32,000 nucleotides of DNA from Cupriavidus necator (lineage in GTDB: Bacteria; Pseudomonadota; Gammaproteobacteria; Burkholderiales; Burkholderiaceae). Where the stretch lies: contig NZ_CP066018.1 in NCBI RefSeq assembly GCF_016127575.1, positions 3,390,001 to 3,422,000 of the forward strand, given 5' to 3'. Shown one piece after another: positions 1,480 through 32,000 of the stretch; the first letter of the stretch is position 1; every line of letters starts with the position of its first letter. Both the position numbers and the translations under genes were made by a program. The notes below the pieces were generated by a model that searched no databases, was not told where the DNA came from, and worked only from the letters and a program-made list of their open reading frames with translations.

Positions 1480-1483
1480 CTCG

Positions 1484-12476: not shown

Positions 12477-12521
12477 CGCCATCTCAGCTTCGCCATCAAT
12501 TACCACCGTCGGCGCAGAACG

Positions 12522-14822: not shown

Positions 14823-15246
14823 GGCGAACCCGATCCCCTGCGTAACTGGCGCCGGTTGCTGGGATACTCCCGCTGATGCCTTCAGGCGATCGCAGATCCT
14901 GCCGCGCTGGCGGCTGCGCAATCCCGGCTGCACGCCGAATCAGGCACTGTGTAATGGTGATGTTAGTCCAACAGGCACCGGGCCGATAATAGCCTCGGCC
15001 GCAGGCAGGGCGCGCCAGCCAGCCCTGGAGATAGTCGATGGCTGCAGGGGCCGCGGTTCGCGGCGCCACGGAGATGATTCGGCACGGCGCGGACCCGCAG
15101 TGGCTGTCGGCGGTACTGCCGTATTCGCTCACTCCTTGATGCACGCGGCGATTACGGCGCATTTTCGGTTCAAATTGCGCTTTGGCCGGTGCCGCCCTAT
15201 ATATTTGGGGGGCGAGAAGCACTCTCAGACAATCATCGTCCATTCC

Positions 15247-16971
15247 ATGAGCAACCCTTTGGCGCCCGCGGGCAAGGTGCAGCCTTCGTCCGAACGTTCT
15301 CACTCCCTTGCCATGGCGATTGGCAGTGTGACGGTCGTTCTCGTCCTCGCGGGGGGATGCTTCTTGATGGCTACCGTCGAATGGTATCGGCAGTTCCTGG
15401 CGCCGTTGGTGCTCTTGACGGGCGCAGGCATCGGGCTCGCCGTGGGACTTTACTGGAACCGGTTGAGGAAGCTTACAGGGAGTAGTGATATCCAACGCGT
15501 GGCGGATAGCGAAGCCCAGTTGGCGGGGATCATCCGATCTTCGATGGAAGCGATCATCACCGTGGACGGTGACCAGCGCGTCGTACTGTTCAATCCCATG
15601 GCAGAAACGCTATTCGCCTGGCCGGCCGAACTTGCAATCGGGCGCTCCCTGAGCGACTTCATTCCCCACCGCTTTCGGGCCGCCCATGCAGAGCATGTGC
15701 GCCGGTTTGGGATCACGGGCGTTTCGGACCGCGAGATGGGACTCCAACGGGCGCTGTGCGCCATGCGTCGGGACGGAAGCGAGTTCCCTATCGAAGCATC
15801 CATTTCACAGATCTCTGTCGGCGAGGCCAAGTTATACACTGTGATGCTGCGCGATATCACCGAACGCGTGCGTGCTGAGGAAGCCCTGCACCGAAGCCTT
15901 CAGCTTGTGAAGGAAAGCGAGGCGCGATTGGCGGGAATTATCCGCTCCTCCATGGAAGCGATCATCACCGTGGACAATGAACAACGCGTAGTGCTGTTCA
16001 ACCCAATGGCGGAGACGTTGTTCGCCTGGCCCGCCGAACTCGCGATTGGCCGCCCCCTCGGCGACTTCATTCCCGAACGCTACCGGGCCGCTCATGAGGA
16101 GCACGTGCGTCGGTTTGGGATCACGGGCGTATCGGATCGTCAGATGGGACGTCAACGGGCACTCTACGCTCTGCGTCGTGACGGCACTGAATTCCCTATC
16201 GAAGCATCCATCTCGCAAACGGCCCACGAAGGCACGAAGCTATATACCGTGATGCTGCGTGATATCACGGAGCGGGCACGCGCGGAGGCGGCCCTGCGCC
16301 GCTCACGGGAAGAACTGCAACAGCTTTCAGATGGGATACTCGCTGCCCGCGAGGAGGAGAGGCGCCGCATTGCACGCGAGCTGCACGATGACCTGGGCCA
16401 GCGCCTGAGCGCGCTTAAGATGGACATGGCTATGCTCGGCGCGGACGTCGATGAGGGCCGTGACACAGCAGGACTGCTAGACGAGATTGGTGCCATAAAC
16501 GGCGTCATCGACAATACTGTTGCCTCGGTCCGACGCATTGCCAGTGACCTACGGCCGGCCTTGCTGGACGAGTTGGGAATGATTCCTGCCATTGAGTGGT
16601 TGGCCGATGATTTTGCCAACCGGTACGGATTGGCGGTGAGCGTGGACGGTGCCGAGGCTGACGTCCCCGCGCAGACGGCAATCGCCATGTTCCGCATTGT
16701 CCAGGAGGCATTGAGCAATGTCGTCCGGCATGCCGACGCGACCACCGTGCATATTCAGCTCACCCAGTCAGAGGGCCAACTTGTGTTGCGGGTGCAAGAC
16801 AATGGGGTGGGCTGGGACAAGGTCTCCTCCGCAAGCGGGCCACGCAAATCGCTGGGACTCCTTGGCATCCGGGAGCGGGCACGCCTTCTGGGTGGCAGCT
16901 TCACCATCGACAGCACTCCCGGCAAGGGCTTTTGCCTAATCGTGCAAATTCCCCACGAAAGGGTGGCCTGA
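15247..16971 (+). CDS. Membrane-anchored sensor histidine kinase: 2 TM, tandem FixL-like PAS, HisKA_3, HATPase_c
   Basis: The 813-aa track ORF is trimmed to ATG 15247, because the upstream part is antisense to the ATPase gene. Two hydrophobic helices with a ~7-aa loop. H-box ELHDDLGQRLSALK is NarX/DevS-type HisKA_3. N/G boxes: EALSNVVRHA, DNGVGW, GLLGIRERA. No RBS is obvious, so the start is approximate. Confidence 0.85.
   Translation: MSNPLAPAGKVQPSSERSHSLAMAIGSVTVVLVLAGGCFLMATVEWYRQFLAPLVLLTGAGIGLAVGLYWNRLRKLTGSSDIQRVADSEAQLAGIIRSSMEAIITVDGDQRVVLFNPMAETLFAWPAELAIGRSLSDFIPHRFRAAHAEHVRRFGITGVSDREMGLQRALCAMRRDGSEFPIEASISQISVGEAKLYTVMLRDITERVRAEEALHRSLQLVKESEARLAGIIRSSMEAIITVDNEQRVVLFNPMAETLFAWPAELAIGRPLGDFIPERYRAAHEEHVRRFGITGVSDRQMGRQRALYALRRDGTEFPIEASISQTAHEGTKLYTVMLRDITERARAEAALRRSREELQQLSDGILAAREEERRRIARELHDDLGQRLSALKMDMAMLGADVDEGRDTAGLLDEIGAINGVIDNTVASVRRIASDLRPALLDELGMIPAIEWLADDFANRYGLAVSVDGAEADVPAQTAIAMFRIVQEALSNVVRHADATTVHIQLTQSEGQLVLRVQDNGVGWDKVSSASGPRKSLGLLGIRERARLLGGSFTIDSTPGKGFCLIVQIPHERVA
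15511..16308 (+). repeat. Tandem in-frame duplication (period 408 bp) encoding the two PAS modules
   Basis: Copy 1 starts ~15511 and copy 2 ~15919. By my hand alignment 104 of 125 aligned residues are identical (83%). Identical 20-24 nt runs include atggaagcgatcatcaccgtggac, cggtttgggatcacgggcgt and ttccctatcgaagcatccat. Confidence 0.85.
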
Positions 16972-17036
16972 TGCGACATGCCTCATGATTGGGGATGGCA
17001 TCGCAGTTGTCCGGAATCAAGCCCCCATGTGCCGGG

Positions 17037-17105
17037 GTAATTCTGGCGATTGTAATTGCGAACGCCGCGACCGGCTTCATTCAGGACGGCAAGGCGGAAA
17101 AAAGC
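17037..17105 (+). pseudogene. Short remnant of a P2-type (CtpF/Ca-Mg-like) P-type ATPase, TM2 region
   Basis: VILAIVIANAATGFIQDGKAEKS matches the very conserved P2-ATPase block ..V..NA.vGFiQE.kAE.al. The similarity is lost on both sides. Only ~23 codons, so low confidence. Confidence 0.35.
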
Positions 17106-17281
17106 CACGGACCGTTTCGGCACCGGCGACGCTACGCCGAATGCTTTGCAGACACTCACTCCATTCTGCTGCTGCAGCGGAACTGCCGTCGCAAGAGCGA
17201 CGGCCGGACGGCAAGGGGCTGGCAGGTTTGCGGTCTGACGGGATTAGTCCGCACGAGGGCCAAACCTTACGGCTAGACCCA

Positions 17282-17842
17282 TCATCCGCCTGGCGCCATC
17301 TTTCCACCCATGCCCGGACCCATCCCCGGCCCCATGCCCGGACCCATGCCCGGACCCATGCCCATGCCCGGGCCCATGCCTTGGTCGTTGGCCATCGTCT
17401 GCATCATTTCCTGCATGAACGCCATGTGACTACCCGCCATGTCTTGGCACATCTGCATTTGATTTGATGGGGCGTTTCCCTTGGCGACTCTCTTGCCAGG
17501 AGCCATACGAGCAGGGCCGCCCATTTTCATCATGTCCTTTTGCATGATGGCCATTGCATCTTGCATGACCTGATGGCGTTCAGCCAAGAGGGCCTGACGC
17601 TCCTCCGGCGTTTTGGCACGCGAAAGCCGCTCTCTGATGGCACGCAGGTGGGCAACCTGGGCGTCCAGCTTTGCATCGCTGGAAACTCCGGGAGTTACGA
17701 CCGGAGCCTTATCTTGCCGCTTTTCAGGATGGTGCTGCTCATGCTCAATGCCGGTAGCCGGCGACGCCGGGAAAGCTGCTGGCGCCCACGCTAGCACGGC
17801 GGCCGCAGTGATAAGGGTAGAGAGGCGATGGTTGGTGGACAT
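17282..17842 (-). CDS. Secreted Met-rich protein with C-terminal (GPGM)n repeat; possible periplasmic Cu(I)/metal-binding or CpxP/Spy/ZraP-like protein
   Basis: 186 aa. RBS AGGAGGA. Signal peptide LITAAAVLAWAPAAFPA|SP. I counted 23 Met in the C-terminal ~105 residues. Tail: GMGPGMGMGPGMGPGMGPGMGPGMGGKM. The function is inferred from composition only. Confidence 0.7.
   Translation of the reverse strand: MSTNHRLSTLITAAAVLAWAPAAFPASPATGIEHEQHHPEKRQDKAPVVTPGVSSDAKLDAQVAHLRAIRERLSRAKTPEERQALLAERHQVMQDAMAIMQKDMMKMGGPARMAPGKRVAKGNAPSNQMQMCQDMAGSHMAFMQEMMQTMANDQGMGPGMGMGPGMGPGMGPGMGPGMGGKMAPGG
17309..17380 (-). repeat. In-frame 12-nt coding microsatellite (CATGCCCGGNCC on the + strand = GPGM), five units plus two 6-nt half-units
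   Basis: Units at 17309-20, 17321-32, 17333-44, 17345-56 and 17363-74. Half-units catgcc at 17357-62 and 17375-80. Confidence 0.85.
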
Positions 17843-17907
17843 GGGAGATCCTCCTATGAAAACATGATGGTTCCTAGTCCAAGGTATGCGGCGGTCAGGG
17901 ATTTGAG

Positions 17908-17921
17908 TTGATTGGGATCAA
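17908..17921. promoter_or_regulatory. Perfect FNR/FixK consensus box TTGAT-TGGG-ATCAA
   Basis: 10/10 match. Centre is 72.5 bp upstream of the Met-rich protein ATG (17842). This fits a class II (-41.5) activator site with a ~30-nt leader. Confidence 0.75.
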
Positions 17922-17964
17922 CGAAGCGATGGGTGTACCGGGTGTTCAGTCCCATCGATGTGCT

Positions 17965-17998
17965 GGTCTGCGCAGGAGCAATCTGCGCAGACCATTTT
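17965..17998 (+). terminator. Intrinsic-terminator-like hairpin: 11-bp perfect stem GGTCTGCGCAG / CTGCGCAGACC, 7-nt loop, then ATTTTG
   Basis: Stem 17965-75 and 17983-93, followed by ATTTTGC on the + strand only. There is no + strand gene upstream, so its role is unclear. Confidence 0.35.
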
Positions 17999-18214
17999 GC
18001 GGATGCCCTCAGCAGCAATGCTCCGGTTGCCAGGAAACGGTCTGGCCAGGAACAAATCCGGCGGCGGAATACCTGGAAATCGACTATGAGGGCAGCAAGT
18101 CAGCGGGAACCGTATAAAGCGCCACTTCGCCCGTCGGCGCCAGCCCTGCGGCGCATTGTTTGTTCCTCTGCCACGCCTCTATCCAACTGCACTTCGCTGC
18201 CAGTGCCGGCGTGC

Positions 18215-18658
18215 TTACGCCCGTTGCATGCTTGATTTGGCGCGCTCCGCGACGTCGAACACGAGCATGCCAGCCACCATTGCTGCCACAAAGCCAATGG
18301 CCTTCGGATAGCCAGCGCCCAGGGCAACCAGCGCGGGACCAGGGCAGAAGCCGGCCAGACCCCAGCCGACGCCGAAGGCGGCGCTGCCCAGTACCAGCCG
18401 CAGCGTTACGGCCGTGCTGGCCGGCAGTTGCACAGGCAGCCCCAGGAAGGAGTGTTTGCGGTGTTTGGCGATGAGGAAGGCGAGCGAGCCAATGGCAATG
18501 GCACCGGCCATCACAAAAGCGAGGGACGGGTCCCAGGTTCCTGCAAGGTCAAGAAAGCCCAGCACCTTGGCCGGGTTGGCCATGCCGGAGACCATCAGGC
18601 CAATGCCAAATAGCAGGCCTGCGACGAGTGCAGTCATGGCGGTCATATCAGCCTCCAA
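18215..18658 (-). CDS. YeeE/YedE-family (DUF395) half-size sulfur-compound transporter subunit
   Basis: 147 aa, four hydrophobic helices, GFCPGPALVALG motif. Overlaps the upstream paralogue by 11 nt. Confidence 0.8.
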   Translation of the reverse strand: MEADMTAMTALVAGLLFGIGLMVSGMANPAKVLGFLDLAGTWDPSLAFVMAGAIAIGSLAFLIAKHRKHSFLGLPVQLPASTAVTLRLVLGSAAFGVGWGLAGFCPGPALVALGAGYPKAIGFVAAMVAGMLVFDVAERAKSSMQRA

Positions 18659-19082
18659 TCAGGTGCCGTTGCACGAAGACAGTCAGGAATCCCGCCACCA
18701 TGAAGGTGAGGGTGGCGACCAGCGAGCGGATGGAGCCGCGCGAGATGCCGCACACGCCATGGCCGCTGGTGCAGCCGCTGGCGTAGCGGGTGCCAAGGCC
18801 GACCAGGAAGCCGGCGGCCAGGATTTCGCCCCAGCTTGCCTGGATATCCGCAATGGCGGGCTTGCCGAGCAGGCTCGCAATCACAGGAGCGCCAACCAGG
18901 CCAGCGAGGAAGGTCAGGCGCCAGGCCATGTCCTTTCGAGGCAGGCTAAGCAGGCCGCCGAAGATGCCGCTGATGCCGGCAATGCGGCCGTTGAACAGCA
19001 GCAGCACAGCGGCCGCCGCACCGATGATGAGCCCGCCGACCAGTGACAGGCCGGGCGTGAAGTTAGCGAGGTCAATCAGCAT
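18648..19082 (-). CDS. YeeE/YedE-family (DUF395) half-size sulfur-compound transporter subunit
   Basis: 144 aa. GTRYASGCTSGHGVCGISRGS motif typical of the family. Overlaps the bigR-like gene by 7 nt. Confidence 0.8.
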   Translation of the reverse strand: MLIDLANFTPGLSLVGGLIIGAAAAVLLLFNGRIAGISGIFGGLLSLPRKDMAWRLTFLAGLVGAPVIASLLGKPAIADIQASWGEILAAGFLVGLGTRYASGCTSGHGVCGISRGSIRSLVATLTFMVAGFLTVFVQRHLIGG

Positions 19083-19414
19083 GTCGCCTCCTGATCGGGG
19101 TTGGCACAGAACTGTTCATAAAGGACCGCCATGACGGCAAGCGCCTGGGGGCTCGCCACCGAATAGAAGATGTTCTTGCCGTCACGGCGCGTGGCCACCA
19201 GGCTGTTCTCGCGCAGCACACCGAGCTGTTGAGACAGCGTCGGCTGCCGGATGCCGAGCTGTTCCTCCAGCTCACCGACAGACAGCTCGCCTTGGGACAG
19301 GCGGCACATCAGCAGCAGGCGGTCCGGATTGGCAAGCACCTTGAGCAGGGTACAGGCCTGCGCCGCAGCAGCTTGCATGCTGGCGAGGTCGATGGCGGGG
19401 TGGGGCTGGTCCAT
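19076..19414 (-). CDS. bigR: ArsR-family winged-helix repressor, BigR-like redox/persulfide switch
   Basis: 112 aa. wHTH region SVGELEEQLGIRQPTLSQQLGVLR. Cys37 (LLMCRL) and Cys103 (EQFCAN) are 66 residues apart, the same spacing as the Cys42/Cys108 pair I recall for Xylella BigR. The genomic context is YeeE x2 plus a divergent blh. Confidence 0.8.
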   Translation of the reverse strand: MDQPHPAIDLASMQAAAAQACTLLKVLANPDRLLLMCRLSQGELSVGELEEQLGIRQPTLSQQLGVLRENSLVATRRDGKNIFYSVASPQALAVMAVLYEQFCANPDQEATC

Positions 19415-19437
19415 AGGTCGTTTACATTTTGCTTGTT

Positions 19438-19478
19438 AATATTATATTGAAAAATAGAATGTATGTGAATAGAATGTA
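19438..19478. promoter_or_regulatory. AT-rich divergent promoter/operator candidates: palindrome AATAT-T-ATATT and direct repeat AATAGAATGTA x2
   Basis: Palindrome at 19438-19448. 11-nt direct repeats at 19453-63 and 19468-78 (15-bp period). These lie in the only 84 bp between bigR and blh, a segment that is strikingly AT-rich for this genome. Confidence 0.4.
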
Positions 19479-19498
19479 CTGCATCCAAGGAGGCGAGC

Positions 19499-20359
19499 AT
19501 GCACCCGACTATCCAGCCGTTCTTCGACCCTGCGACCTGGACTGTGACGTACGTGGTCTTTCAGGAGGGGCGCCCCGAGTGCGCCATCATCGACTCGGTG
19601 CTGGACTACGACCCCAAGGCGGGTCGGACATCGACGGCAAGTGCTGATAAGGTTGTTGCGTTTGTGCGCGCGCATGGACTGAGAGTCGAGTGGATTCTCG
19701 AGACGCACGCGCATGCTGACCACCTGTCTGCCGCGCCGTACCTGAAGCGACACCTGGGTGGCCAGACAGCAATAGGCCAGAACATCCGCAACGTACAGGG
19801 GGTCTTCAAGACGCTCTTTAACCTGGAGCCTGAGTTTCGGCTCGACGGGTCGCAGTTCGACCACCTGTTTGACGACGGAGCGACGTTTGCCATCGGCGGC
19901 CTGACCGGCAGGGCGATTCATGTGCCAGGGCATACACCCGCCGACATGGCTTACCAGATTGGGGACGCGGTCTTTGTCGGCGATACGCTGTTCATGCCGG
20001 ACGTCGGCACGGCTCGCTGCGATTTCCCGGGCGGCGACGCACACGAGTTGTATCGCTCCATCCGCAAGCTGCTGGACCTGCCGAGCAATACACGGCTCTT
20101 TATGTGTCACGACTATCCGCCCGAGGGGCGCGGGCCTGCATGGGAAACGACGGTGCGCGCTCAGCGCGAAGGCAATATCCACGTGCATGACGGCGTGAGC
20201 GAGGAACAGTTCGTGGCCATGCGCCGGGCGCGCGATGCGACGCTGGCGATGCCGACGCTGCTTCTGCCGTCGGTGCAAGTCAATATACGAGCCGGGGAGT
20301 TGCCGCCGCCCGATGCGAATGGCGTTCGCTATCTAAAAATCCCTCTGGACGTCATCTGA
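19499..20359 (+). CDS. blh: MBL-fold hydrolase, Blh/ETHE1-like persulfide dioxygenase candidate
   Basis: 286 aa. RBS AAGGAGG. Metal motif THAHADH and a later HVPGHTPAD. Divergent from bigR, as in BigR-type sulfide detoxification loci. Confidence 0.8.
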   Translation: MHPTIQPFFDPATWTVTYVVFQEGRPECAIIDSVLDYDPKAGRTSTASADKVVAFVRAHGLRVEWILETHAHADHLSAAPYLKRHLGGQTAIGQNIRNVQGVFKTLFNLEPEFRLDGSQFDHLFDDGATFAIGGLTGRAIHVPGHTPADMAYQIGDAVFVGDTLFMPDVGTARCDFPGGDAHELYRSIRKLLDLPSNTRLFMCHDYPPEGRGPAWETTVRAQREGNIHVHDGVSEEQFVAMRRARDATLAMPTLLLPSVQVNIRAGELPPPDANGVRYLKIPLDVI

Positions 20360-20379
20360 GGCAGGTTGTTTTCAATTGT

Positions 20380-20592
20380 TGTTCCCATTGCGATGGCGAC
20401 GAACCGGAATGCACTCTCGACGCGGCCACCGAGCGCCGCAGCTGCGCCCAGGCAGAGCGCGCCGATGCCATACCCGAGGTCGCGCCAGAAGCGGTAGATG
20501 CCGATGGCGGACGCCCGCCAACTGGGGTGTGCGATGTCGGCTACCGCAGCGCTCAGATTGGGGTACAACATCGCCATGCCCGGCCCGGTCAT
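20380..20592 (-). pseudogene. C-terminal remnant of an MFS transporter
   Basis: YPNLSAAVADIAHPSWRASAIGIYRFWRDLGYGIGALCLGAAA looks like TM11-12 of an MFS protein. Nothing upstream corresponds to the first ~330 aa, and the reading frame runs into the 3' end of blh. Confidence 0.5.
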
Positions 20593-20755
20593 CCCTCGGG
20601 CTTGTTACGGCTTCGTCATACTTCACCGTAGTGCTGCCAGCGACCCAATTAGCCTCCGCCCCTGCTCAGAACGGACAGCAGGCCTCTAACTTCAATGATG
20701 CTGGTCTTCATCTCATCCATCCTCGCAGGTCACAAGTTCGTGCTGCGCTACCGTC

Positions 20756-21559
20756 TCACTTCGAAATCGCCCCGCTCAGAAGATGTTCCTCTGCATAAGG
20801 AAACACAACTTCCGGATTAGGGCGAATCAGCTCAGCGTCCTTGTGCGCATAGTGAAGGCGGGTCAGTAGATCCTTGATGACGCTGAGGCGTGCGACATGC
20901 TTGTCGTCGGCGCGCACGACGTTCCATGGCACGATGTCGCTGGTTCGAGCAAACATCTCGTTCCGTGCCTTACTGTATTTCTTCCAAAGCGATACCGCTT
21001 GTTCGTCAATGGGGCTGACTTTCCACTGTTTTAGCGGGTCCCGGCGGCGCTCTTCGATGCGCTTCTTCTGTTCGGCCTTGCTGATGTCAAGGTAGTACTT
21101 GATAAGACGAATTCCGGAACGCACGAGCATCCGTTCGAACTCTGGGACACTTGCCATGAACTCCTCATGCTCGTCCTTGGTGCAGAAGCCCATCACATGT
21201 TCCACACCGGCCCGGTTGTACCAACTGCGATTGAAAAGGGTGAACTCGCCGGCCGCAGGCAGCTCGGCCGCATAGCGGCGGAAGTACCAGGAGCCTCGGT
21301 CACGGTCGGATGGCTTCCCCAGTGCGACGACGCGCGTTTCACGCGGACTGAGGTGTTCGACAATGCGCTTGATGGTCCCATCCTTCCCAGACGCATCCCT
21401 TCCCTCAAAAATCACCAGAATCCGGTCGCTGCAGGAAATGAAGTGCTTCTGTAGTTTGACCAGCTCGATTTGAAGCAGGTGGAGATTCTCCTCATAGCTG
21501 TCATGGGAGAGGGCGCTTGCCTCGGATGGAGCCGTCTTGCTACTTGTCTTCATTTTCAT
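20756..21559 (-). CDS. ppk2: Polyphosphate kinase 2 (single-domain PPK2)
   Basis: 267 aa. RBS GGGAGGTG. Walker-A-like FEGRDASGKDGTIK, followed by FNRSWYNRAGVEHVMGF and the lid region. Confidence 0.9.
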   Translation of the reverse strand: MKMKTSSKTAPSEASALSHDSYEENLHLLQIELVKLQKHFISCSDRILVIFEGRDASGKDGTIKRIVEHLSPRETRVVALGKPSDRDRGSWYFRRYAAELPAAGEFTLFNRSWYNRAGVEHVMGFCTKDEHEEFMASVPEFERMLVRSGIRLIKYYLDISKAEQKKRIEERRRDPLKQWKVSPIDEQAVSLWKKYSKARNEMFARTSDIVPWNVVRADDKHVARLSVIKDLLTRLHYAHKDAELIRPNPEVVFPYAEEHLLSGAISK

Positions 21560-21990
21560 GGTTCACCTCCCTTGAGTCGGGCGCATCGGGTGGGAAAGGG
21601 TGGGGCTTTCCAGGTGAAAGCGGGGTAACTTTTTCGTTGAGCAACAGCTCCAGCGAAGGGCGGTCTACGACCTCCTGTTCGAGCAGTAGCTTTGCCAGCG
21701 CGTCTGGCTTGTGCCGGTTTGCCAGCAATGTTTGCTTCACCCGCTGACTGGCGTCGCCCAGAATCGTCCGCACTTCTGCATCAATGATTTGCGCAGTACT
21801 CTCGCTGTACTCTTTGCGTTGCCGAGGCATTGGCAGCTTCGAGGTCCTGGACCAGATTGGGGTCGTTGACCCGAAGCGTGGAGAAGGGGTGGTCTCCCTT
21901 TCCCTGGCGCAACATCTCTTCGACCTGTGGCTTGGGGAGCAGAGTCTCAATGCCAGTGGTGACACGAGCTCGTAAAGAGCTGTGGCGCAA
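21540..21990 (-). pseudogene. ftsH: C-terminal remnant of an FtsH-family protease (frameshifted, N-terminally truncated)
   Basis: One frame reads RKEYSESTAQIIDAEVRTILGDASQRVKQTLLANRHKPDALAKLLLEQEVVDRPSLELLL, the FtsH C-terminal helical region (compare ..SDETARIIDQEV...L...ETID). An upstream piece, VTTG...GDHPFSTL...PNLVQDL, is in another frame. The AAA and zinc-protease cores are absent. Confidence 0.6.
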
Positions 21991-22020
21991 GGACTTGGAG
22001 TCATATCGCCATTCTTGGTA

Positions 22021-22287
22021 TCAGGTCTCTCCTTGAAGGCTGTTGTGTAACCATGCAAAGAATGCCCCGGCAGCGAAGAACCACACCGCAAACACAAAGG
22101 CTGGATAGATGATGGACCACCACGATACTGATTCGCCGGTCTGAAGGCGCCGGAAATCGAGCCCGTGAAAGAGCGCGTTCATGAAATTCATGAAGGGCTC
22201 AGGAAGAACCATCCAGACGAGCGTGCATAGAACGTAGAACAGCACGACCGTGGCGGATAGCGTCAAACCAGTCTTGAAGGGTTTCAT
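22021..22287 (-). CDS. Small multi-pass membrane protein (resembles what RefSeq labels DUF5676; recalled from memory)
   Basis: Track ORF trimmed to ATG 22287 (GGAGG 6 nt upstream). 88 aa with hydrophobic segments LTLSATVVLFYVLCTLVWMVL and IIYPAFVFAVWFFAAGAFFAW. Confidence 0.6.
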   Translation of the reverse strand: MKPFKTGLTLSATVVLFYVLCTLVWMVLPEPFMNFMNALFHGLDFRRLQTGESVSWWSIIYPAFVFAVWFFAAGAFFAWLHNSLQGET

Positions 22288-22323
22288 GGCAGCCTCCGGG
22301 TGCAAGGAAGATGACGGTTGAAT

Positions 22324-22992
22324 TCAATGAGGACGCGTCCGCGGAACATCTCGGGCTGAGATATGCGGAATGAACGCTGGTGTCTTTTGGCGATATTCCT
22401 CATATGCTTGCCCGAACTCGGCCAGTGCGTCCTGCTCCTCCGACTTGGCCAGCCGAACATACATCCAGACCAGGATGGGGAACATCACCAGAGTGACTAT
22501 CGTCGGCCACTGCAGCAGGAAGCCGAACATAATCAGGACGAACGCGACATACTGGGGGTGCCTCATGCGCGCATAGAGACCAGTGGTCGCCAGGCGGTGC
22601 TGCTGCTGGGCCAGGTACAGAATGCGCCAGGCGGAAGACAGCATGATGAAGCCGCCAAAAATCAAGATGTCGCTGGCGATGTGAAATGGCCCCAGGTGCG
22701 GGTTGCCCCTCCAGCCGAAAATCATCTCCGGAAGATGACCGGCATCATGCGAGAGGAAGTCGATTCCCGGGAATTTCGCCGAAAGCCACGGTAGCAGGAG
22801 ATAGATACTCAGGGGGATGCCATACATCTCTGTAAAGAGCGCCACAATGAACGCGGAGAACGCGCCAAACGAGCGCCAGTCGCGCTGGGTCTTCGGCTTG
22901 GTGAAGCTGAAGGCGAAGATGATGAAGACAGCTGAGTTGATAATGACCAGCGACCAGAGACCGTAGCTGGATTGTGTTTCGGGTTGCATCAT
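22324..22992 (-). CDS. Integral-membrane ICMT/PEMT-family SAM-dependent methyltransferase
   Basis: 222 aa, multi-pass. Family motif TGLYARMRHPQYVAF, followed by EEQDALAEFGQAYEEYRQKTPAFIP. The start overlaps the DUF2933 stop (ATGATG/TGA at 22987-22992). Confidence 0.8.
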   Translation of the reverse strand: MMQPETQSSYGLWSLVIINSAVFIIFAFSFTKPKTQRDWRSFGAFSAFIVALFTEMYGIPLSIYLLLPWLSAKFPGIDFLSHDAGHLPEMIFGWRGNPHLGPFHIASDILIFGGFIMLSSAWRILYLAQQQHRLATTGLYARMRHPQYVAFVLIMFGFLLQWPTIVTLVMFPILVWMYVRLAKSEEQDALAEFGQAYEEYRQKTPAFIPHISARDVPRTRPH

Positions 22993-23249
22993 CGCTCTCC
23001 TTTGGCGTTCGTGTCCTTGGTGGCGTCATCCGGTCCGTGACCGTGTCGATGTCCACCGTGCATGAAGATGTGCATTAAGGGGCAGGCGGCCAGCAGAAGA
23101 AATGGCAGGAACTGAATGACGTGTGCCCGGTGTTCAGTCCATAGGAAGTAGGCAATCACCAGCAGAAAGCCAATCATGACCAGCTTGGACCTGGCCACGG
23201 TGCGCAGTGCGTCGCCAGGCCGCTCATGACCGTTGTGGTCGTGGTTCAT
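22989..23249 (-). CDS. DUF2933-like His-rich small membrane protein
   Basis: 86 aa. N-terminal MNHDHNGHE, two TM helices, then ACPLMHIFMHGGHRHGHG. Confidence 0.7.
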   Translation of the reverse strand: MNHDHNGHERPGDALRTVARSKLVMIGFLLVIAYFLWTEHRAHVIQFLPFLLLAACPLMHIFMHGGHRHGHGPDDATKDTNAKGER

Positions 23250-23439
23250 GTTTTCCTCCTATAAAGCGAACGCCGTACCGCCTGGCAGCAGCCATGGTGC
23301 CGATGACGTAGGTGTATGTATCTCGCTTGGTCTTGCTGAAAAACTGTTCGCCGTTCCGCCAAGCAGGAGCCAAGTGAGACTCTGTGATAACCAGTTCATA
23401 GACCCTCTCTTCAACCTTTGTCTTGGCGTTCACGCTCAA
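23224..23439 (-). CDS. Questionable 71-aa ORF (TTG start, no RBS), unknown function
   Basis: It fills the only gap in the array and overlaps both neighbours (29 and 26 nt). Its composition is protein-like ([42 protein letters not shown]), unlike shadow ORFs. No credible start signal was found. Confidence 0.25.
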   Translation of the reverse strand: MSVNAKTKVEERVYELVITESHLAPAWRNGEQFFSKTKRDTYTYVIGTMAAARRYGVRFIGGKHEPRPQRS

Positions 23440-23626
23440 CTGCGTTTCGTATATCGCGCTCGCACTGTCGCGAAAGGCGAAGACTCAACCACACCACAAC
23501 GACCGGACAGGACAGCAGGAGTAGGCCAACCAGTATGGTGAACGGTGTCAGCCCAAACCGGTAGACGATAGCTGCCGCGAGTAGCATTGCAAAGGCAGCG
23601 CAAATCCATGCCACCGGGTGTTTCAT
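23411..23626 (-). CDS. Small two-TM membrane protein translationally coupled to the Cu ATPase
   Basis: 71 aa. Its ATG overlaps the ATPase stop (ATGA, 23623-23626). Two hydrophobic helices, then a charged tail [19 protein letters not shown]. Confidence 0.55.
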
Positions 23627-26106
23627 CTCGCCTCCAGGCTGGCAATTCTGGCGCCAAGTCGTACACGCTTCAGCAATGCGGAGTTGGCTACCACACTCAA
23701 TGAGGACAGTGCCATTGCTGCTGCGGCAAAGATGGGGTTCAGGAGTCCAAGTGCGGCGATAGGGATGCCGATGGTGTTGTAGATGAACGCCCAGAAGAGG
23801 TTCTGTTTGATTTTGCGCATCGTCGCGCGGGACAGCTCAATGGCGGCAACCACGTCACGCACGTCATCGCGAATGAGGATGATGCTCCCAGTTTCCTTCG
23901 CGACATCCGAGCCTGAGCCGATGGCAATGCCGATGTCCGCTGCGGCAAGCGCCGGTGCGTCATTGACGCCGTCTCCCACCATGGCCACGACCTCCCCTTG
24001 CTTCTGTAATGCGTGAATGGTCTCGACCTTGTCTTCCGGCATCACCTCGGCAATGACATGCTCAATGCCAACCTGCCGGCCGATTGCCTCGGCGGTGCGG
24101 CGGTTGTCACCGCTCAGTAGCACAACCTTGATGGCGCGCGCCTTCAATGCCGCGATTGCCTCGCTCGCTTCCGGTTTCACAGTGTCAGCCACGGCCACTA
24201 CGCCGAGCAATTGTGTGCCGGCGCCGACCAGCATGGCTGTCTTGCCATCGGCCTCGAGCTTCCCGAGTACAGATTCGGCCGATTCGATTGGGATGCCTTG
24301 GCGTGCAAAGAGACGCCGGTTGCCCAGCCAGACTTGCTGACCGTCGACGAGGCCCTGAATGCCCATGCCAGACAATGCGCTGATGCTGGCTGCCTTGGGA
24401 ATGGTGAGCGCGCGATACTGTGCGGCGCGCACGATGGCTTCGCCCAAAGGGTGCTCGGACCCGGCTTCCACAGCGGCAGCAAGAGTCAGCAGGTCAGATT
24501 TCTCTCGCCCAGAAAGGGGGATGACATCGGTCAAGGTCGGCTCTCCGCGCGTAATCGTCCCGGTCTTGTCAAAGACAACCGCGGTGAGCTTCTCGGCCCG
24601 CTCCAGCACTTCACCGCCGCGTATCAGGATGCCGTTGTCCGCGCCCTTGCCGACGCCGACCATCAGCGCTGCTGGCGTGGCGACGCCTAGCGCGCAGGGG
24701 CAGGAGATAATCAGAACAGCCACGAATGCGAGCAGTCCCTGCGGAAAATGACCGGCGACGGTCCATCCCACTAATGCCAGCATCGCGACCGAAACAACCG
24801 CAGGTACGAAGTAGCCGGTGACCTGGTCCGCCAGTCTCTGAATCTGCGCGGTGCTGGCCTGGGCGTCCTCGACCATCCTGATAATCTGAGCGAGAGCGGT
24901 GTCCGCTCCGATTTTTGTGGCCTGGAAGGTGAAGGCGCCACTGCGGTTTAGCGTGCCGCCAATGACAGCGGCACCAGGCTTCTTTTCCACGGGCATCGAC
25001 TCGCCGGTCAGCATCGATTCATCGACACTGGATTGGCCATCGATAACCTTGCCATCAGTGGGAATCTTCTCGCCGGGGCGTACAACGACCGCTTCGCCCA
25101 CCATGATGCTTTCAGCCGGGATTTCCACCTCCGTCCCGTCGCGAAGCACGTGAGCGACGGCGGGGCGCAGGTCGAGCAGGCGTCGAACAGCGGCGGAGGA
25201 TTTCTTCTTGATGATTTCCTCCATGTATTTCCCCAGCAGCACGAAGGCGATAATGACCGCCGACACCTCAAAGTAGACGTCTCGCTCTTCGACCTTGACG
25301 GGCAGCCAGGACGGAAAGAACAGCACTACTACGCTGTAGAAGTAGGCGACGGACGTCCCCAGGGCGATGAGGAAGTCCATATTGATATTGCGCGTCCGGA
25401 TGGCGTTCCATGCGCCCTTGTAGAAGCTCCAGCCGCCAATGAACTGGACCGGCGTGACGAGAAGGAATAGCCACATCCCCCACGTGAACCAAGGCAGGGC
25501 GGGAATCGGGGCCCAAGTCACGAGCGTCGCGCCGGCTGCCAGTGCCAGGAAGGCGCCAGCCCGCAGCACCGCCAGCGCGAGCACGCCCGTGAGCGCAATG
25601 GTCACGCGCGTCTTCATGGCTTTCAACTCGCTCTCTGGCGACTCGAAGGTCCGAAGGCAGCTCTCGCTGCAGAAGTAGTACTTGCGGTTGCCACGCTCGG
25701 CGGAGAGGGCCGTAGCCTTGTCCACCATCATTCCGCAAATAGGGTCCTTGGCGAGTTGCTTGGCGGCGTGGGAAGCAAGCGCGGGCGTCGCCGCAGGGAT
25801 AGGAGCGACGCCGGGTGGGCTAGGACTGCGGGAGGGCCCAGCCGAGCTACGCCTATCAACGGGGTGAAGAACATATTTCGCCGGGTTGGCTAGGAAAACC
25901 TGCTCACAGTGTGGAGAGCAGAACCAGTATCGCTTCTGGTCGAGCTCCGTGCTGGTAGCGGCCTCCCGTGGGGAGATCTCCATGCCACAGACCGGGTCAC
26001 GCACGAGCTGCTGCGAGGCGGCCGGGCCTGCGGCGGCCGTTGGAGCTGCCTGGGCTTCGGTGAGGCCGTAACTCCCCCCATTAGGGGTGGTGGACTTGGT
26101 CGGCAT
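23623..26106 (-). CDS. Cu(I)/Ag(I)-type P1B-1 P-type ATPase with two N-terminal YHS/TRASH domains
   Basis: 827 aa. RBS AAGGAGAGG. Two copies of DP(V/I)CGM...(Y/W)FCS..C. Transmembrane CPC (IISCPCALG), YN (FIYNTIGIP) and [12 protein letters not shown] signature. DKTGTIT and [10 protein letters not shown] present. No HMA (CxxC) domain. Confidence 0.9.
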
Positions 26107-26188
26107 TCCATCCTCTCCTTGGGGCTATTAAGAGGGGCTGCAGCGCATAAATTACATTTTCATTCTGGGTGACCAGTCGATTTGCTTC

Positions 26189-26202
26189 TTGATTTCAATC
26201 AA
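26189..26202. promoter_or_regulatory. Perfect FNR/FixK consensus box TTGAT-TTCA-ATCAA
   Basis: 10/10 match. Centre is 89.5 bp upstream of the ATPase ATG (26106), within the 240-bp gap after the SAM synthetase gene. Confidence 0.75.
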
Positions 26203-26346
26203 GCGTTCATGGGTGGTCGGGGGTGCGGTGGGTGCCGATTCAGGAATGAATGTCGAACGCCGCATGACGTATGTGTTTGAAGGCTGGGAAGCCGCTCGGC
26301 CAGCCGATGCCGGCGCCGAGGTTGCTTTGCTCCCCATACACCGGGC

Positions 26347-27531
26347 CTAGAAGACCGCTACCGTGCCATAGACCAGCTCATTGACCAAGGCAGGAAGCTG
26401 CGCCAGCTGTAGCGTCGCGAGTTCACGAACTTGCTGCTCCTGGGCGCTCGAGAGGCCGCGCTCGGCCACGACATCAATGGCAAACAGTTGGGGCTGGTCG
26501 ATGGGGCGTCCAATTCCGGAGAGAAGCCGGACGACGACTTCATCCGCGCCATCCACGCTTGCCTGAATATGAGAGGCTAACCGGTGGGCGAGCACGTTGT
26601 AGAGCTTGCCGACATGTGACGCCGGGTTCTTGCCCGCTGCGGCCTCCAGCGACATTGGCCGATAGGGGGTAATCAGGCCATTGACCCGGTTTCCGCGGCC
26701 GACCTGGCCGTCATCACCATGCTCAGCACTTAAGCCAGTGACCGTCAGGTAAATCCCGCTTTCGTCGCAAGCATCCCGGCGATCGAGGGTATTGATTGCA
26801 ATCTCACAGTCGGTGCCGATGTGCTCGGCCAGATACGACCCAATCCGGCCCTTGAGGATGAAGTACTCATCGACGCCTTGGACGCATCGGTCGACAAAGG
26901 CCAGCGCAAGAGTGAGACGGTGATGCGCACCCAGCCGACTCCCCATCACCTTGTAATCGAGGCCCGCCGCCTCAAACATTCCCCTGTCGGCACGTGAGCG
27001 CAGAAGGTCGGCAATCAACAGCACCGCTCTTTCAAGCGATGAGAGTGGCGCATAGCCGACGCCAAAGGATGTGTCATTGGACAGCGAAAGAGACGCTGCA
27101 TTGGTCACGCGCCGGAGGTTCGGGGCCGAGGGGCGGAGGATTGGCTCGATCCGGATGTCATTGCCAATGTCGCCCAAGGATGTCGCCAGGTACTCGCGAA
27201 TGGCCTGCTCGACAACTAGCTCGGCCTTGGCCGACGGAAGTTCGGTAACAGGGCCGGATACTATCAACCGCGTTGAGCGCAGCACTTTGCCACCGCCGAA
27301 CTTTGGCGCGCTCATGCCGCCGATGAGTAGCGCCTTGTCCAGATTGAAGTGCTGGACTGCGCCATAGGCTTCGAAGTATGCGCGGCACAAGGCGCGAGCC
27401 GCAGCTTCGACAGCCCCATCGCATAGGCTATCGGGATGTCCGATGCCCTTGTGCTCGCACATTTCCGTCTGCTCACCTCGCCATGACGGCCCACGCGAGA
27501 TAGCAATCGCTATGTTCTCCATGATGGTCAT
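26347..27531 (-). CDS. Archaeal-type S-adenosylmethionine synthetase (methionine adenosyltransferase, MJ1208/PF01941-like)
   Basis: 394 aa. RBS AAGGGGG. Motif EHKGIGHPDSLCDG near the N-terminus, with length and overall pattern as in archaeal-type MAT. It does not resemble bacterial MetK. Confidence 0.75.
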   Translation of the reverse strand: MTIMENIAIAISRGPSWRGEQTEMCEHKGIGHPDSLCDGAVEAAARALCRAYFEAYGAVQHFNLDKALLIGGMSAPKFGGGKVLRSTRLIVSGPVTELPSAKAELVVEQAIREYLATSLGDIGNDIRIEPILRPSAPNLRRVTNAASLSLSNDTSFGVGYAPLSSLERAVLLIADLLRSRADRGMFEAAGLDYKVMGSRLGAHHRLTLALAFVDRCVQGVDEYFILKGRIGSYLAEHIGTDCEIAINTLDRRDACDESGIYLTVTGLSAEHGDDGQVGRGNRVNGLITPYRPMSLEAAAGKNPASHVGKLYNVLAHRLASHIQASVDGADEVVVRLLSGIGRPIDQPQLFAIDVVAERGLSSAQEQQVRELATLQLAQLPALVNELVYGTVAVF

Positions 27532-27630
27532 CTCGAGCCCCCTTCACGCCGTCGCCCTGTAGCCATTCTATGTAGCCGCGGTAGGTCAAGTCGCGAAGGT
27601 TCGGTTCCCGACTCGGGTTGCCAGGAGTTG

Positions 27631-27644
27631 TTGACGCGAATCAA
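27631..27644. promoter_or_regulatory. Near-consensus FNR/FixK box TTGAC-GCGA-ATCAA
   Basis: 9/10 match. Centre is 106.5 bp upstream of the SAM synthetase ATG (27531) and 46.5 bp upstream of the ATG (27684) of the decayed formate/nitrite transporter gene. A weaker box, TTGCC-TAGC-ATCAA, follows at 27660-27673. Confidence 0.6.
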
Positions 27645-27683
27645 GCACGGTTTTTCGCGTTGCCTAGCATCAATGCTGAAAAT

Positions 27684-28143
27684 ATGACTTTCGATTGCCA
27701 ACTAAGTCGCGGCAGGGCCGCTGGTGCACTATTAGGCTCATGTGGCCTGGCATTTGAAGGTTGCGAAAACGCCGAGCGGGTGCAAACCGTCGGGTGGCCA
27801 AGGCGCGCCTGCCGCTGCTGCAAATGGCGATGCTTGGGCATACTGGCCGGTGCTTTCATCGGGCGGGGAGCGCTGAATTCCGTACGGGTTGCCAGCGACC
27901 CAAGTTTAGGGTTCGCCACCAGCTGCGTGATTGGTAGCTAGCCTGGTGTTTTCATTAGGGCTGCTGCTGGTAGTGCCCGGCGCCAAGCTATTCACTGCCA
28001 ACAACCTATTAGTGATGGCCTGGGCCGACCGGCGAATCAGCAGCTACGAGCTGCTGCGCAATTTTGGGGTTGTGAGCTTGACCAACTTTGCCGAAGCGGC
28101 TGGACTCGCATTGCTGGTTGGTTGCCAGGGTATCCGGTGCTGA
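27684..28143 (+). pseudogene. Formate/nitrite transporter (FocA/NirC family) pseudogene: multiple frameshifts, in-frame stop, 3' truncated
   Basis: Consecutive FNT blocks sit in different frames. The pieces are KARLPLLQMAMLG, then LGILAGAFIGRGAL..SDPSLGF ending at TAG 27939. The last piece is LVFSLGLLLVVPGAKLFTANNLLVMAWADRRISSYELLRNFGVVSLTNFAEAAGLALLV. Confidence 0.6.
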
Positions 28144-28243
28144 ACAACGGACTAGTGGCTGAGCGCTTGGAGCGCATTGCCGTTGCCAATTGCGCCCCAA
28201 GCCCCCAGCCGTTCATTGGTGTGCGCATCCGTACAGATGCCAG

Positions 28244-28474
28244 TTACACCCTGGAACTGTCAATGGTGCTGCCGCCGGGGATGGATCCGTGGCCACCCGC
28301 TGCAAGGGCTGATCGGCTTTCAGTCTTTGCCCCGACAATCGCTCTATCTCCGGCGCCTGCCTCGGTCAGCTGGTCGATCAATGCGACCTTGATCTCGGTC
28401 GGCACTAACGCCTTCTCGTTCTGGAGGCCATCGCGTGGACCGACTTCCACGATCTTGACTTTGTCTGGTTGCAT
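28244..28474 (-). pseudogene. liuE: Hydroxymethylglutaryl-CoA lyase truncated after ~40 codons
   Basis: Intact RBS (GGGGAGG) and N-terminus [40 protein letters not shown]. Similarity ends at ~28355, and the remaining 36 codons to the stop are unrelated. A full-length enzyme is ~300 aa. Confidence 0.65.
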
Positions 28475-28497
28475 TGCCGGAAACCTCCCCCACGATA

Positions 28498-30513: not shown

Positions 30514-30531
30514 CGGTCTTCCTTGTCGTGA

Positions 30532-32000
30532 TTACATGCGGAACACGCCGAACTTCATGTCCTCGATCGGCGCATTCAGGCTCGCGGACAGTCCCAGGCC
30601 CAGCACGGTGCGGGTCTGCGCGGGATCGATCACGCCGTCGTCCCACAGGCGCGCGCTGGCGTAGTACGGATGGCCCTGGTGCTCGTACTGGTCGCGGATC
30701 GGCTGCTTGAACGCCTCTTCCTCTTGCGCGCTCCACTTGCCGCCCTTGCCCTCGATGCCGTCGCGGCGCACCGTGGCCAGCACGCTGGCGGCCTGCTCGC
30801 CGCCCATCACCGAGATGCGCGCGTTCGGCCACATCCACAGGAAGCGCGGCGAATAGGCGCGCCCGCACATGCCGTAGTTGCCGGCGCCGAACGAGCCGCC
30901 GATGATCACCGTGAATTTGGGTACCTGCGCGGTGGCCACCGCGGTCACCATCTTGGCGCCGTTGCGCGCGATGCCTTCGTTCTCGTACTTGCGCCCGACC
31001 ATGAAGCCAGTGATGTTCTGCAGGAACACCAGCGGGATCTTGCGCTGGCAGCACAGCTCGATGAAGTGCGCGCCCTTCAGTGCGGATTCGGAGAACAGGA
31101 TGCCGTTGTTGGCGACGATGCCGACGGGGTAGCCCCAGATGCGCGCGAAGCCGCACACCAGCGTGGTGCCGTAGCGCGCCTTGAACTCGTCGAACTCGGA
31201 GCCGTCGACCAGGCGCGCGATCACCTCGCGCACGTCGTAGGGCTTGCGCGTGTCGGTCGGGATCACGCCGTACAGTTCTTCCACCGGGTACAGCGGCTCG
31301 ACCGGCTCGTGCAGGCGGATCTGGTCCGGCTTGCGGCGGTTCAGGTGCTGCACGATATTGCGCGCCAGCGACAGCGCGTGGTGGTCGTTCTGCGCGAAGT
31401 AGTCGGCCACGCCCGACAGGCGCGTATGCACGTCGGCGCCGCCCAGGTCTTCGGCGCTGACCTCCTCGCCGGTGGCGGCCTTCACCAGCGGCGGGCCGCC
31501 CAGGAAGATGGTGCCCTGGTTCTTGACGATGATGGACTCGTCGCTCATCGCGGGCACGTAGGCGCCGCCGGCGGTGCACGAGCCCATCACCACCGCGATC
31601 TGCGGGATGCCCTGCTTGGACAGGTTGGCCTGGTTGTAGAAGATGCGGCCGAAGTGGTCGCGGTCGGGGAACACGTCGTCCTGGTTGGGCAGGTTGGCGC
31701 CGCCGGAATCGACCAGGTAGATGCACGGCAGGTTGTTCTCCTCGGCGATCTCCTGTGCGCGCACATGCTTCTTGACCGTCATCGGGTAGTAGGTGCCGCC
31801 CTTGACGGTGGCGTCATTGCAGACGATCACGCACTCCTGCCCGGCCACGCGGCCGATGCCGGTGATGATGCCGGCGCCAGGCGCGGCATCGTCGTACATT
31901 TCGTACGCAGCAAGCTGCGACAGCTCCAGGAACGGGGTGCCCGGATCCAGCAGTTGCTGCACGCGGTCGCGCGGCAGCAGCTTGCCGCGCGACAGGTGCT
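30532..32000 (-). CDS. liuB: 3-Methylcrotonyl-CoA carboxylase beta subunit (carboxyltransferase), 5' end outside the window
   Basis: Carboxyltransferase two-domain pattern ([11 protein letters not shown]..., [11 protein letters not shown]). The frame stays open upstream of the track's Met at 31962 through to position 32000 (..[18 protein letters not shown]), so the true start is beyond the window. Confidence 0.85.

Follow-up and report, generated by a model that had tools for sequence, protein, structure and literature searches.

Chromosome 1 of Cupriavidus necator H16 contains, within a window of 32,000 nucleotides that corresponds in reverse orientation to approximately positions 2,143,782-2,175,781 of AM260479.1 (the position in that record is 2,175,782 - x for window position x), a tract of low guanine-plus-cytosine (GC) content that extends from ~14985 to 28355 and in which intact genes lie between gene remnants. 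This block is likely the cargo-rich, eroded tail of a larger accessory segment that is shared with megaplasmids. The segment spans at least 33 kb, consisting of window positions 1-28355 together with at least 4.7 kb to their left, and its right end lies within an HMG-CoA lyase gene.

Comparison of the window with plasmid sequences by megablast and blastn revealed collinear copies on megaplasmids of 1.2-1.7 Mb in four other Cupriavidus strains, namely C. necator C39 (p1), Cupriavidus sp. P-10 (pMTS1), C. oxalaticus X32 (its plasmid) and KK10 (p1). Specifically, window positions 1-27742 are collinear with C39 p1 at 91-98% identity, with pMTS1 at 82-94% and with the X32 plasmid at 85-93%, while KK10 p1 matches 98% of positions 1-14985 at 93% identity and remains collinear for at least 4.7 kb to the left of the window. 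The shared order begins with hypoxia genes resembling the locus termed lxa (low-oxygen-activated) in Burkholderia cenocepacia J2315 (genes BCAM0275a-BCAM0323; PMC3721108, Sass et al. 2013), and proceeds through a hemerythrin-ATPase gene, a variable slot, a Met-rich gene and a BigR/dioxygenase/YeeE module to MFS-PPK2-FtsH, DUF5676-ICMT-DUF2933, a YHS-CopA ATPase and an archaeal-type methionine adenosyltransferase (MAT). The homologous tract is equally low in GC on the plasmids and is longer there, ranging from 20 kb to more than 33 kb. Module borders recur at 20367, 21961/22021, ~23273 and ~27600, and the closest relatives of the modules outside Cupriavidus are spread over Ralstonia, Paraburkholderia, Variovorax, Rhizobium and Leisingera.

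The collinearity of flank and block indicates that the low-GC modules joined the hypoxia locus before the replicons diverged and, given its extent (1-27742), that linkage of the low-GC part with the high-GC hypoxia genes preceded the arrival of the entire segment next to liuD. A sequence-only reading of the window had taken the 13-kb block for the inserted unit, a proposal that does not hold: the left edge of the block, at 14985-15009, is an internal mosaic joint, with collinearity running from position 1 to ~27742. Immediately to the right of this joint, an H16-clade-specific stretch (15009-17133) occupies the place at which the plasmids carry a 5.2-kb set of universal stress protein (USP), ABC, FtsX and HlyD genes.

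That the block is compositionally distinct, as the same reading had proposed from spot counts, is borne out by measurement over the whole window. In 500-nt bins, the GC content of 15000-28355 is 0.601 (sd 0.028, n=26), compared with 0.679 (sd 0.032, n=38) in the rest of the window (Mann-Whitney p=3e-10), and the two best least-squares change-points fall at 15101 and 28601. GC at third codon positions (GC3) is 0.70-0.82 in block genes vs 0.77-0.94 in flank genes, and tetranucleotide profiles likewise set the block apart from the high-GC parts, although this last comparison includes self-reference and is descriptive only. Deviant composition is thus limited to 15-28.4 kb, the remainder of the transferred segment being unremarkable in this respect. 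Together, the GC shift and the modular structure agree with the description of the block as a mosaic of foreign composition. Equally upheld is the reported absence of mobility features: no transposase or integrase domain was found by Pfam in all plausible open reading frames (ORFs) of the window and in six-frame translations of four unassigned stretches, no remnant of the mobile-element proteins of the plasmid copies was found in the window by tblastn, no tRNA was found in the window by ARAGORN, and a search for flanking direct or inverted repeats and insertion sequence (IS) ends around 14-29 kb returned only short matches at chance level. No Rfam family was found in the whole window at gathering thresholds, and nothing credible as a riboswitch or intron remnant was seen upstream of the MAT gene (Rfam, 26000-28500, E<=1). 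Prophage origin was considered and rejected, phage genes not having been seen; an assembly artefact was ruled out by independent assemblies that are 100% identical. The features of the window are as follows.

1-14985, no strand assigned: high-GC, lxa-like low-oxygen gene set (Pfam), part of the same megaplasmid-type segment as the block
12522-14933, minus strand: hemerythrin-fused P1B ATPase gene, with a TPCP motif and a C-terminal hemerythrin domain
14985-15009, no strand assigned: left mosaic joint, at which homology ends at 14985 (KK10 p1), 15007 (P-10) and 15009 (C39 p1)
15139-16971, plus strand: orphan PAS-PAS-HisKA_3-HATPase sensor kinase gene, 610 aa (Pfam, NCBIfam)
17037-17105, plus strand: P2-type cation ATPase remnant, ~29 residues corresponding to residues 91-119, near the N-terminus, of a 906-aa Legionella plasmid ATPase
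17282-17842, minus strand: gene for a Met/Gly-rich protein (186 aa) whose N-terminus is hydrophobic (signal peptide read by eye) and which contains a (GMGP)n repeat
18215-18658 and 18648-19082, minus strand: two genes for half-size YeeE/YedE (Sulf_transp/DUF6691) membrane proteins (precomputed Pfam)
19076-19414, minus strand: BigR-like ArsR/SmtB repressor gene, 112 aa (Pfam HTH_5)
19499-20359, plus strand: persulfide/sulfur dioxygenase-type gene of the metallo-beta-lactamase fold (Pfam Lactamase_B), divergent from the BigR-like gene
20377-20592, minus strand: MFS transporter remnant, residues 371-442 of a 461-aa MFS protein that is intact on C39 p1
20756-21559, minus strand: polyphosphate kinase 2 (PPK2) gene, intact (Pfam PPK2 1e-92; TIGR03707 above cut-off)
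21543-21960, minus strand: FtsH remnants, residues ~551-646 (21543-21830) and 65-108 (21829-21960) of a 646-aa FtsH that is intact on C39 p1
22021-22287, minus strand: DUF5676 gene (Pfam)
22324-22992, minus strand: ICMT-family methyltransferase gene (Pfam)
22989-23249, minus strand: DUF2933 gene (Pfam)
23623-26106, minus strand: P1B-1-type Cu(I) ATPase gene with two N-terminal YHS domains (Pfam, NCBIfam)
26347-27531, minus strand: archaeal-type MAT gene (PF01941 2e-129; NF003366 above cut-off)
27743-28355, plus strand: H16-clade-specific 613-bp filler with an FNT channel remnant; homology to C39 p1 ends at 27742
28474-28355, minus strand: HMG-CoA lyase (liuE-like) remnant, the first 40 codons (residues 1-40 of 298)
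28498-32000, minus strand: native flank with biotin carboxylase (671 aa) and carboxyltransferase genes of a second liu-like cluster (Pfam)

Erosion of the block is documented by remnants of five genes, all of which had been recognized from the sequence and all of which proved real. For MFS and FtsH, the plasmid copies contain the full-length genes (461 and 646 aa), a comparison that might have exposed the fragment calls as mistaken and that instead confirms them. Relative to these copies, the H16 MFS gene has undergone a 1175-bp deletion at 20591/20592, while the FtsH gene has lost 1328 bp internally at 21830 and a further 270 bp at 21960. The MFS and FtsH junctions display 0-1 nt of microhomology, no inserted sequence and no IS scars, and therefore point to illegitimate recombination. 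The FNT remnant (27750-28134) retains residues 9-136 of 271 in three frames, with at least two frameshifts; within the plasmid collection, the DNA closest to the filler is 77-79% identical over ~100 nt and belongs to Leisingera plasmid FNT genes. The P2-ATPase stub is 66% identical to the Legionella protein, with a pairwise E of 7e-10 and database-level E values of 5e-6 to 4e-2, and its plasmid tblastn matches fall in genes annotated as cation-transporting P-type ATPases; it is nevertheless the least certain of the remnants, because no support came from a Pfam six-frame search, PDB phmmer or a comparison with the P2-ATPase of KK10 p1. The alternative that the fragments are misread short genes was ruled out by full-length counterparts at 93-98% identity.

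The plasmid copies have experienced losses of their own. Most of the copper ATPase gene is missing from C39 p1, while the X32 plasmid lacks the hemerythrin ATPase, MFS, PPK2 and FtsH genes in addition to most of the copper ATPase gene. Mobile elements are present in these copies as well: pMTS1 carries two IS3-type transposase genes and, directly after the MAT gene, C39 p1 carries a RRXRR+HNH (IscB-like, 467 aa) gene and a split group II intron reverse transcriptase/maturase, the equivalent place in H16 being occupied by the FNT stub and the lyase junction. The best matches of the P2-ATPase and FNT stubs outside Cupriavidus, on a Legionella pneumophila plasmid (NZ_CP011106.1, 66143-72229) and a Leisingera plasmid, adjoin USP, phbB and sensor kinase genes, from which it follows that hypoxia-type neighborhoods of USP, PHA (polyhydroxyalkanoate), ATPase and FNT genes recur on plasmids of distant Proteobacteria.

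At the right end, the junction between chromosome and segment lies exactly at 28355, which is codon 40 of the HMG-CoA lyase gene, and nucleotide homology to the KK10 chromosome, with 96.9% identity across the liu genes, ends at precisely this position. The liuE assignment of the break made in the sequence-only reading is therefore accurate, and the empty site that it called for is found in KK10, where LiuE, to which the H16 stub is 97.5% identical, is intact (298 aa) and is followed by different genes. Specifically, the KK10 cluster consists of genes for a TetR regulator, an acyl-CoA synthetase, an acyl-CoA dehydrogenase, a carboxyltransferase, a 671-aa biotin carboxylase and the lyase, after which come ftrA and genes of amino-acid metabolism. 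The lyase gene is also intact in several metagenome contigs, adjacency of lyase and ftrA genes is seen again in several independent contigs, and no match to window positions 1-28354 was found in the 10 kb that follow the lyase gene of KK10. What could not be sustained is the accompanying view that the cut gene belongs to a housekeeping operon. H16 possesses a canonical liu cluster near 0.2 Mb, with an intact 311-aa lyase and a 675-aa biotin carboxylase that is 94% identical to the copy in the window; the liu-like cluster in the window is therefore a second, accessory copy, and the cut lyase gene a redundant paralogue. The canonical cluster (188600-206627 in the H16-derived CP196472.1) is interleaved with bioAFDB genes, while the copy in the window has its own TetR and acyl-CoA synthetase genes.

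The same mosaic, including its remnants, is present at 99.4-99.8% identity in the C. necator chromosomes CP196548.1, CP196450.1, KB944488.1 and LMVF01000039.1, and is therefore fixed in the clade and no laboratory artefact. Considered together with the plasmid copies, these data suggest a history in which the low-GC modules would have joined the hypoxia locus before the replicons diverged, each copy subsequently losing different pieces. The segment would have entered chromosome 1 of the H16 clade directly after the biotin carboxylase gene, cutting the lyase gene at codon 40. On the line to this clade, the clean deletions of 1175 bp in MFS and of 1328 bp and 270 bp in FtsH would have taken place, the USP, ABC, FtsX and HlyD set would have been replaced by the orphan sensor kinase and the P2-ATPase stub, and the 613-bp filler with its frameshifted FNT stub would have come to lie at the lyase junction, while the mobile elements of the plasmid copies (IS3, IscB-like, group II intron) would not have been retained. 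Both the movement from megaplasmid to chromosome and the mechanism of the deletions are what we infer from these comparisons. Of the earlier suggestion that the block represents an old, eroded acquisition or the product of successive illegitimate recombinations, the erosion stands and the junctions fit, but the 13-kb block as the inserted unit does not.

An ancestral chromosomal location, from which the megaplasmids would have taken the segment, with truncation of the lyase gene as a later and unrelated local deletion, is unlikely. Synonymous divergence (dS) is 0.02-0.16 between H16 and C39 p1 and 0.08-0.15 for liuD/liuB between H16 and KK10, such that the copies diverged on the time scale of the strains; this similarity to core-gene values fits vertical co-divergence, although it gives no direction, and the variation of the liu-like neighborhood among strains is also compatible with an ancestral chromosomal segment. 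Against it, the segment is found on four different megaplasmids and in a single chromosomal clade whose members are 99.4-99.8% identical. The closest chromosome examined, that of KK10 (96.9% nucleotide identity), has an intact lyase gene followed by other genes, with the hypoxia locus on a megaplasmid, and it is on the plasmids that the low-GC tract is longer and still accompanied by mobile elements.

Very unlikely, and largely refuted by the data at hand, is the possibility that the 13-kb block is a self-contained old island, inserted into or deleted up to liuE of a housekeeping operon, whose mobility genes have been lost. Such an island would account for the GC change-points at ~15.1 and 28.6 kb, the right break in the lyase gene, the real joint at 14985-15009 and a window devoid of mobility genes. 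On four megaplasmids, however, the high-GC flank and the block form one uninterrupted stretch with unchanged order, and the left GC step is therefore not an insertion border; furthermore, no trace of positions 1-28354 lies downstream of the intact lyase gene of KK10, and the gene that was cut has an intact paralogue in the canonical liu cluster. Finally, it is scarcely credible that the low GC is not foreign but reflects codon usage of membrane proteins, AT-biased decay of pseudogenes or weak expression, since, even though membrane proteins are the products of several block genes and pseudogenes account for several stretches, GC3 is also lower in the soluble, intact and selected PPK2, MAT, dioxygenase and kinase genes, the same tract is equally low in GC on the plasmids, and the nearest non-Cupriavidus relatives of the modules lie in different genera.

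Several observations weigh against the derivation of the block from a megaplasmid-type segment as proposed here. No H16 orthologues of the KK10 ftrA and metC-like genes were seen in protein searches, and what took place may accordingly have been replacement of these genes, or rearrangement on a larger scale, as opposed to a simple insertion. C39 keeps ftrA elsewhere on its chromosome, in the absence of the liu cluster, which indicates general variability of this neighborhood. Within 10 kb to the left of the window, the left border of the H16 segment was not reached, and for the FNT filler and the kinase segment the plasmid collection yielded no donor closer than the Leisingera FNT genes (77-79%) and the kinase paralogues (72-75%). 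The direction of transfer rests on parsimony, that is, on four plasmids vs one chromosomal clade together with a truncated gene. Membership of the systems to which the locus is likened is also incomplete: the likeness to lxa is one of repertoire as described, the H16 regulator scores 113 bits against an NCBIfam cut-off of 155 for the BigR equivalog, and the H16 dioxygenase, unlike Blh, has no DUF442 and matches the ETHE1 half only (profile positions 141-422 of 423), at 401 bits vs a cut-off of 625.

To the left of the block, window positions 1-14985 encode, in addition to the hemerythrin-ATPase, PhaB2, two nitroreductases, a phosphoribosyltransferase, a BON protein, a Cpn60 paralogue, an alpha/beta hydrolase, a DUF883 protein, a DksA/TraR protein, an APH+AAA_33 protein and a LRAT protein. 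The short-chain dehydrogenase gene at 733-1479 and the PHA synthase gene that follows it outside the window are phaB2-phaC2, known as h16_A2002-A2003 (PMC10788006). Beyond the window, hypoxia genes continue throughout the adjoining 10 kb, among them phaC2, four USP genes, an alanine dehydrogenase gene and a thymidine-phosphorylase-like gene. The Pfam content of positions 1-14933 and these 10 kb matches the published description of lxa (PMC3721108), at the level of repertoire and not of gene-by-gene orthology. The hemerythrin-ATPase has a P1B-5-like architecture and is kept on three megaplasmids. Small indels of ~150-360 bp distinguish the 99.4-99.8% identical C. necator chromosomes from one another at 7527, 8687-9048 and 11864-12176, part of one nitroreductase gene being lost among them in LMVF01000039.1; erosion is therefore ongoing in the high-GC part too.

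Within the block, every intact gene has a dN/dS (the ratio of nonsynonymous to synonymous substitution rates) of 0.07-0.37 when H16 is compared with the plasmid copies, and the intact genes are under purifying selection. At the left end of the block, the sensor kinase has no response regulator beside it, whereas its paralogue on KK10 p1 is followed by a gene for a LuxR-type response regulator and has a P2-type ATPase gene ~2.7 kb upstream; kinase paralogues elsewhere on the megaplasmids have only 72-75% nucleotide identity. A 408-nt internal tandem duplication is evident in the kinase gene, its two PAS units (15499-15798 and 15907-16206) being 79-81% identical at the nucleotide level. The Met/Gly-rich protein matched no family in Pfam or NCBIfam and may be a periplasmic metal- or stress-binding protein. 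Its (GMGP)n repeat is encoded by a 12-nt tandem repeat at 17306-17380 whose copy number varies among C. necator strains (protein lengths of 186, 194 or 198 aa), and dN/dS for the gene is 0.20-0.25.

The half-size YeeE/YedE genes display a weak TsuA-like match in NCBIfam, have plasmid homologues that are annotated as YeeE/YedE, and show dN/dS values of 0.07-0.37. The dioxygenase is 286 aa in length, and a form of the same length is encoded by the plasmid copies (C39 p1 and another). For the PPK2 gene, dN/dS is 0.08-0.34, and for the DUF5676-ICMT-DUF2933 genes, the last two of which lie directly downstream of the copper ATPase gene, it is 0.07-0.28. The copper ATPase itself is H16_A1976, copP1, as counted along the gene calls of the record from phaB2-phaC2. 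It contains the motifs CPC (469), DKTGT (513), YN (776) and MALSS (MxxSS; 798), scores above the cut-offs of TIGR01511 and TIGR01525, and, while labeled 'putative copper uptake' in the H16 annotation, is predicted from these motifs and families to act in export. All six PDB matches of the MAT at E<=7e-72 are deposited as S-adenosylmethionine (SAM) synthase, and we take these six to be archaeal entries. An archaeal-type MAT is encoded here in a betaproteobacterium, and its gene adjoins those for CopA, DUF2933, ICMT and DUF5676; it may supply SAM to the ICMT-family methyltransferase.

A link between these genes and oxygen availability is suggested by FNR/Anr boxes, defined as TTGAT-N4-ATCAA with up to two mismatches. 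The window contains 14 such boxes vs 4.3 expected, and 14 was reached in 0 of 100 shuffles. Perfect boxes are located at 17908-17921, ~72 nt upstream of the start codon of the Met/Gly-rich gene, and at 26189-26202, ~90 nt upstream of the copper ATPase gene, while the MAT gene is preceded, at a distance of ~107 nt, by an FNR-like box with one mismatch (27631-27644). The Met-rich and copper ATPase boxes are kept in three megaplasmid copies, in which the half-sites are constant and the spacer varies. In addition, copP1 (H16_A1976) was 20-fold induced during the PHA-production phase in a published RNA-seq analysis (PMC3734047, Table S2). With respect to the sulfur genes, the BigR operon is needed for H2S oxidation and for growth under hypoxia in Xylella and Agrobacterium (PMC5823870). 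By analogy, a BigR-type, sulfide-sensing repressor would control the sulfur dioxygenase and the YeeE-type membrane proteins, and FNR/Anr-controlled production would apply to a Cu(I) efflux ATPase with its DUF2933, ICMT and DUF5676 partners, alongside the SAM synthetase and PPK2; oxygen and sulfide would accordingly be the regulatory signals. Judging from gene content and box positions, the intact genes probably serve low-oxygen sulfide detoxification and Cu(I) efflux, and most likely supplement a low-oxygen stress regulon with these two functions, along with PPK2 and a supply of SAM. The suggestion that the modules are functionally related through hypoxia, metals and sulfide is, at the level of gene content, well founded.

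A stronger proposal is that the linkage of the lxa-like hypoxia locus, the BigR-type sulfide module and the module of the FNR-box-controlled Cu(I) ATPase, DUF2933, ICMT, DUF5676 and archaeal-type SAM synthetase constitutes one functional unit for survival of anoxia. In this unit, a dedicated, oxygen-regulated SAM synthetase would feed a membrane methyltransferase of the ICMT family that cooperates in copper efflux; under limited respiration, the enzyme might, for instance, methylate a substrate that is a thiol, sulfide or metal-bound. This proposal draws on the order of the modules having been kept across five Cupriavidus replicons despite heavy erosion, and we regard it as distinctly improbable. 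Were it correct, the genes would represent a new SAM-dependent arm of copper and sulfide defense and not co-travelling cargo.

Among the chassis used for CO2-based and bioplastic production, C. necator H16 is a major one. The present analysis indicates that ~30 kb or more around phaB2-phaC2 is accessory DNA of megaplasmid type with dead genes, which is of use for genome reduction, for cleaning up the annotation and for interpreting microaerobic phenotypes. The conserved FNR boxes before the copper ATPase and Met-rich genes, together with the box before the SAM synthetase gene, provide testable hypotheses on copper and sulfide stress at low oxygen. The locus also illustrates that a GC step need not be an insertion border: here it is an older internal joint, and the transferred unit includes host-like DNA. 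No general concept is changed by these findings; the H16 region is ordinary decaying accessory cargo, shared by megaplasmids and chromosome in a multipartite genome, and not a new type of element.

Comparison with characterized systems reveals partial likeness in each case. As in the bigR operon of Xylella fastidiosa and Agrobacterium tumefaciens (PMC5823870), an ArsR/SmtB repressor gene adjoins genes for an ETHE1-type dioxygenase and for membrane proteins handling sulfur compounds, with a functional link to growth under hypoxia, and the spacing of Cys37 and Cys103 in the H16 regulator (66) equals that of Cys42 and Cys108 in BigR. In contrast to the bigR operon, two half-size YeeE/YedE proteins are encoded instead of a TauE-like sulfite exporter. 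The copper module, for its part, resembles the CopA-(cupredoxin)-DUF2933-ICMT clusters of Alteromonas and other marine bacteria, which are known cargo of copper-resistance islands (PMC8478169), in that a P1B-1 ATPase, DUF2933 and ICMT are encoded together on accessory DNA. No MerR/CueR or cupredoxin domains were found in the Pfam-scanned ORFs of the block (23250-23622 and 26107-26346 not having been scanned in six frames), and the H16 module differs from the Alteromonas-type CopA clusters in its two YHS domains, in the attached DUF5676 and archaeal-type SAM synthetase genes, and in the FNR/Anr boxes upstream.

With respect to its overall organization, the region is similar to eroded genomic islands and to the accessory cargo of Burkholderiaceae megaplasmids and chromids, displaying GC deviation, an empty site in a relative, pseudogenes and a mosaic structure with recurrent borders, as well as mobile elements in sister copies and a junction inside a resident gene. 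It is unlike a classical integrative island in that the window has no integrase, tRNA or direct repeats, the right junction falls in a protein-coding gene, and only a sub-region of what was transferred deviates in composition. A parallel for the high-GC part is lxa, whose described repertoire the window and its left extension resemble in USPs, a PHA synthase, an acetoacetyl-CoA reductase, nitroreductases, a phosphoribosyltransferase and a Cpn60 paralogue, in addition to genes for a cation ATPase, for sensor kinases and for an ATP-dependent Zn protease, the last present in H16 as a remnant. GC is host-like in both, and in both, genes are preceded by TGA-N6-TCA motifs of the FNR/Anr type. Unlike lxa, however, the H16 locus is fused to a low-GC tract of sulfide and copper cargo.

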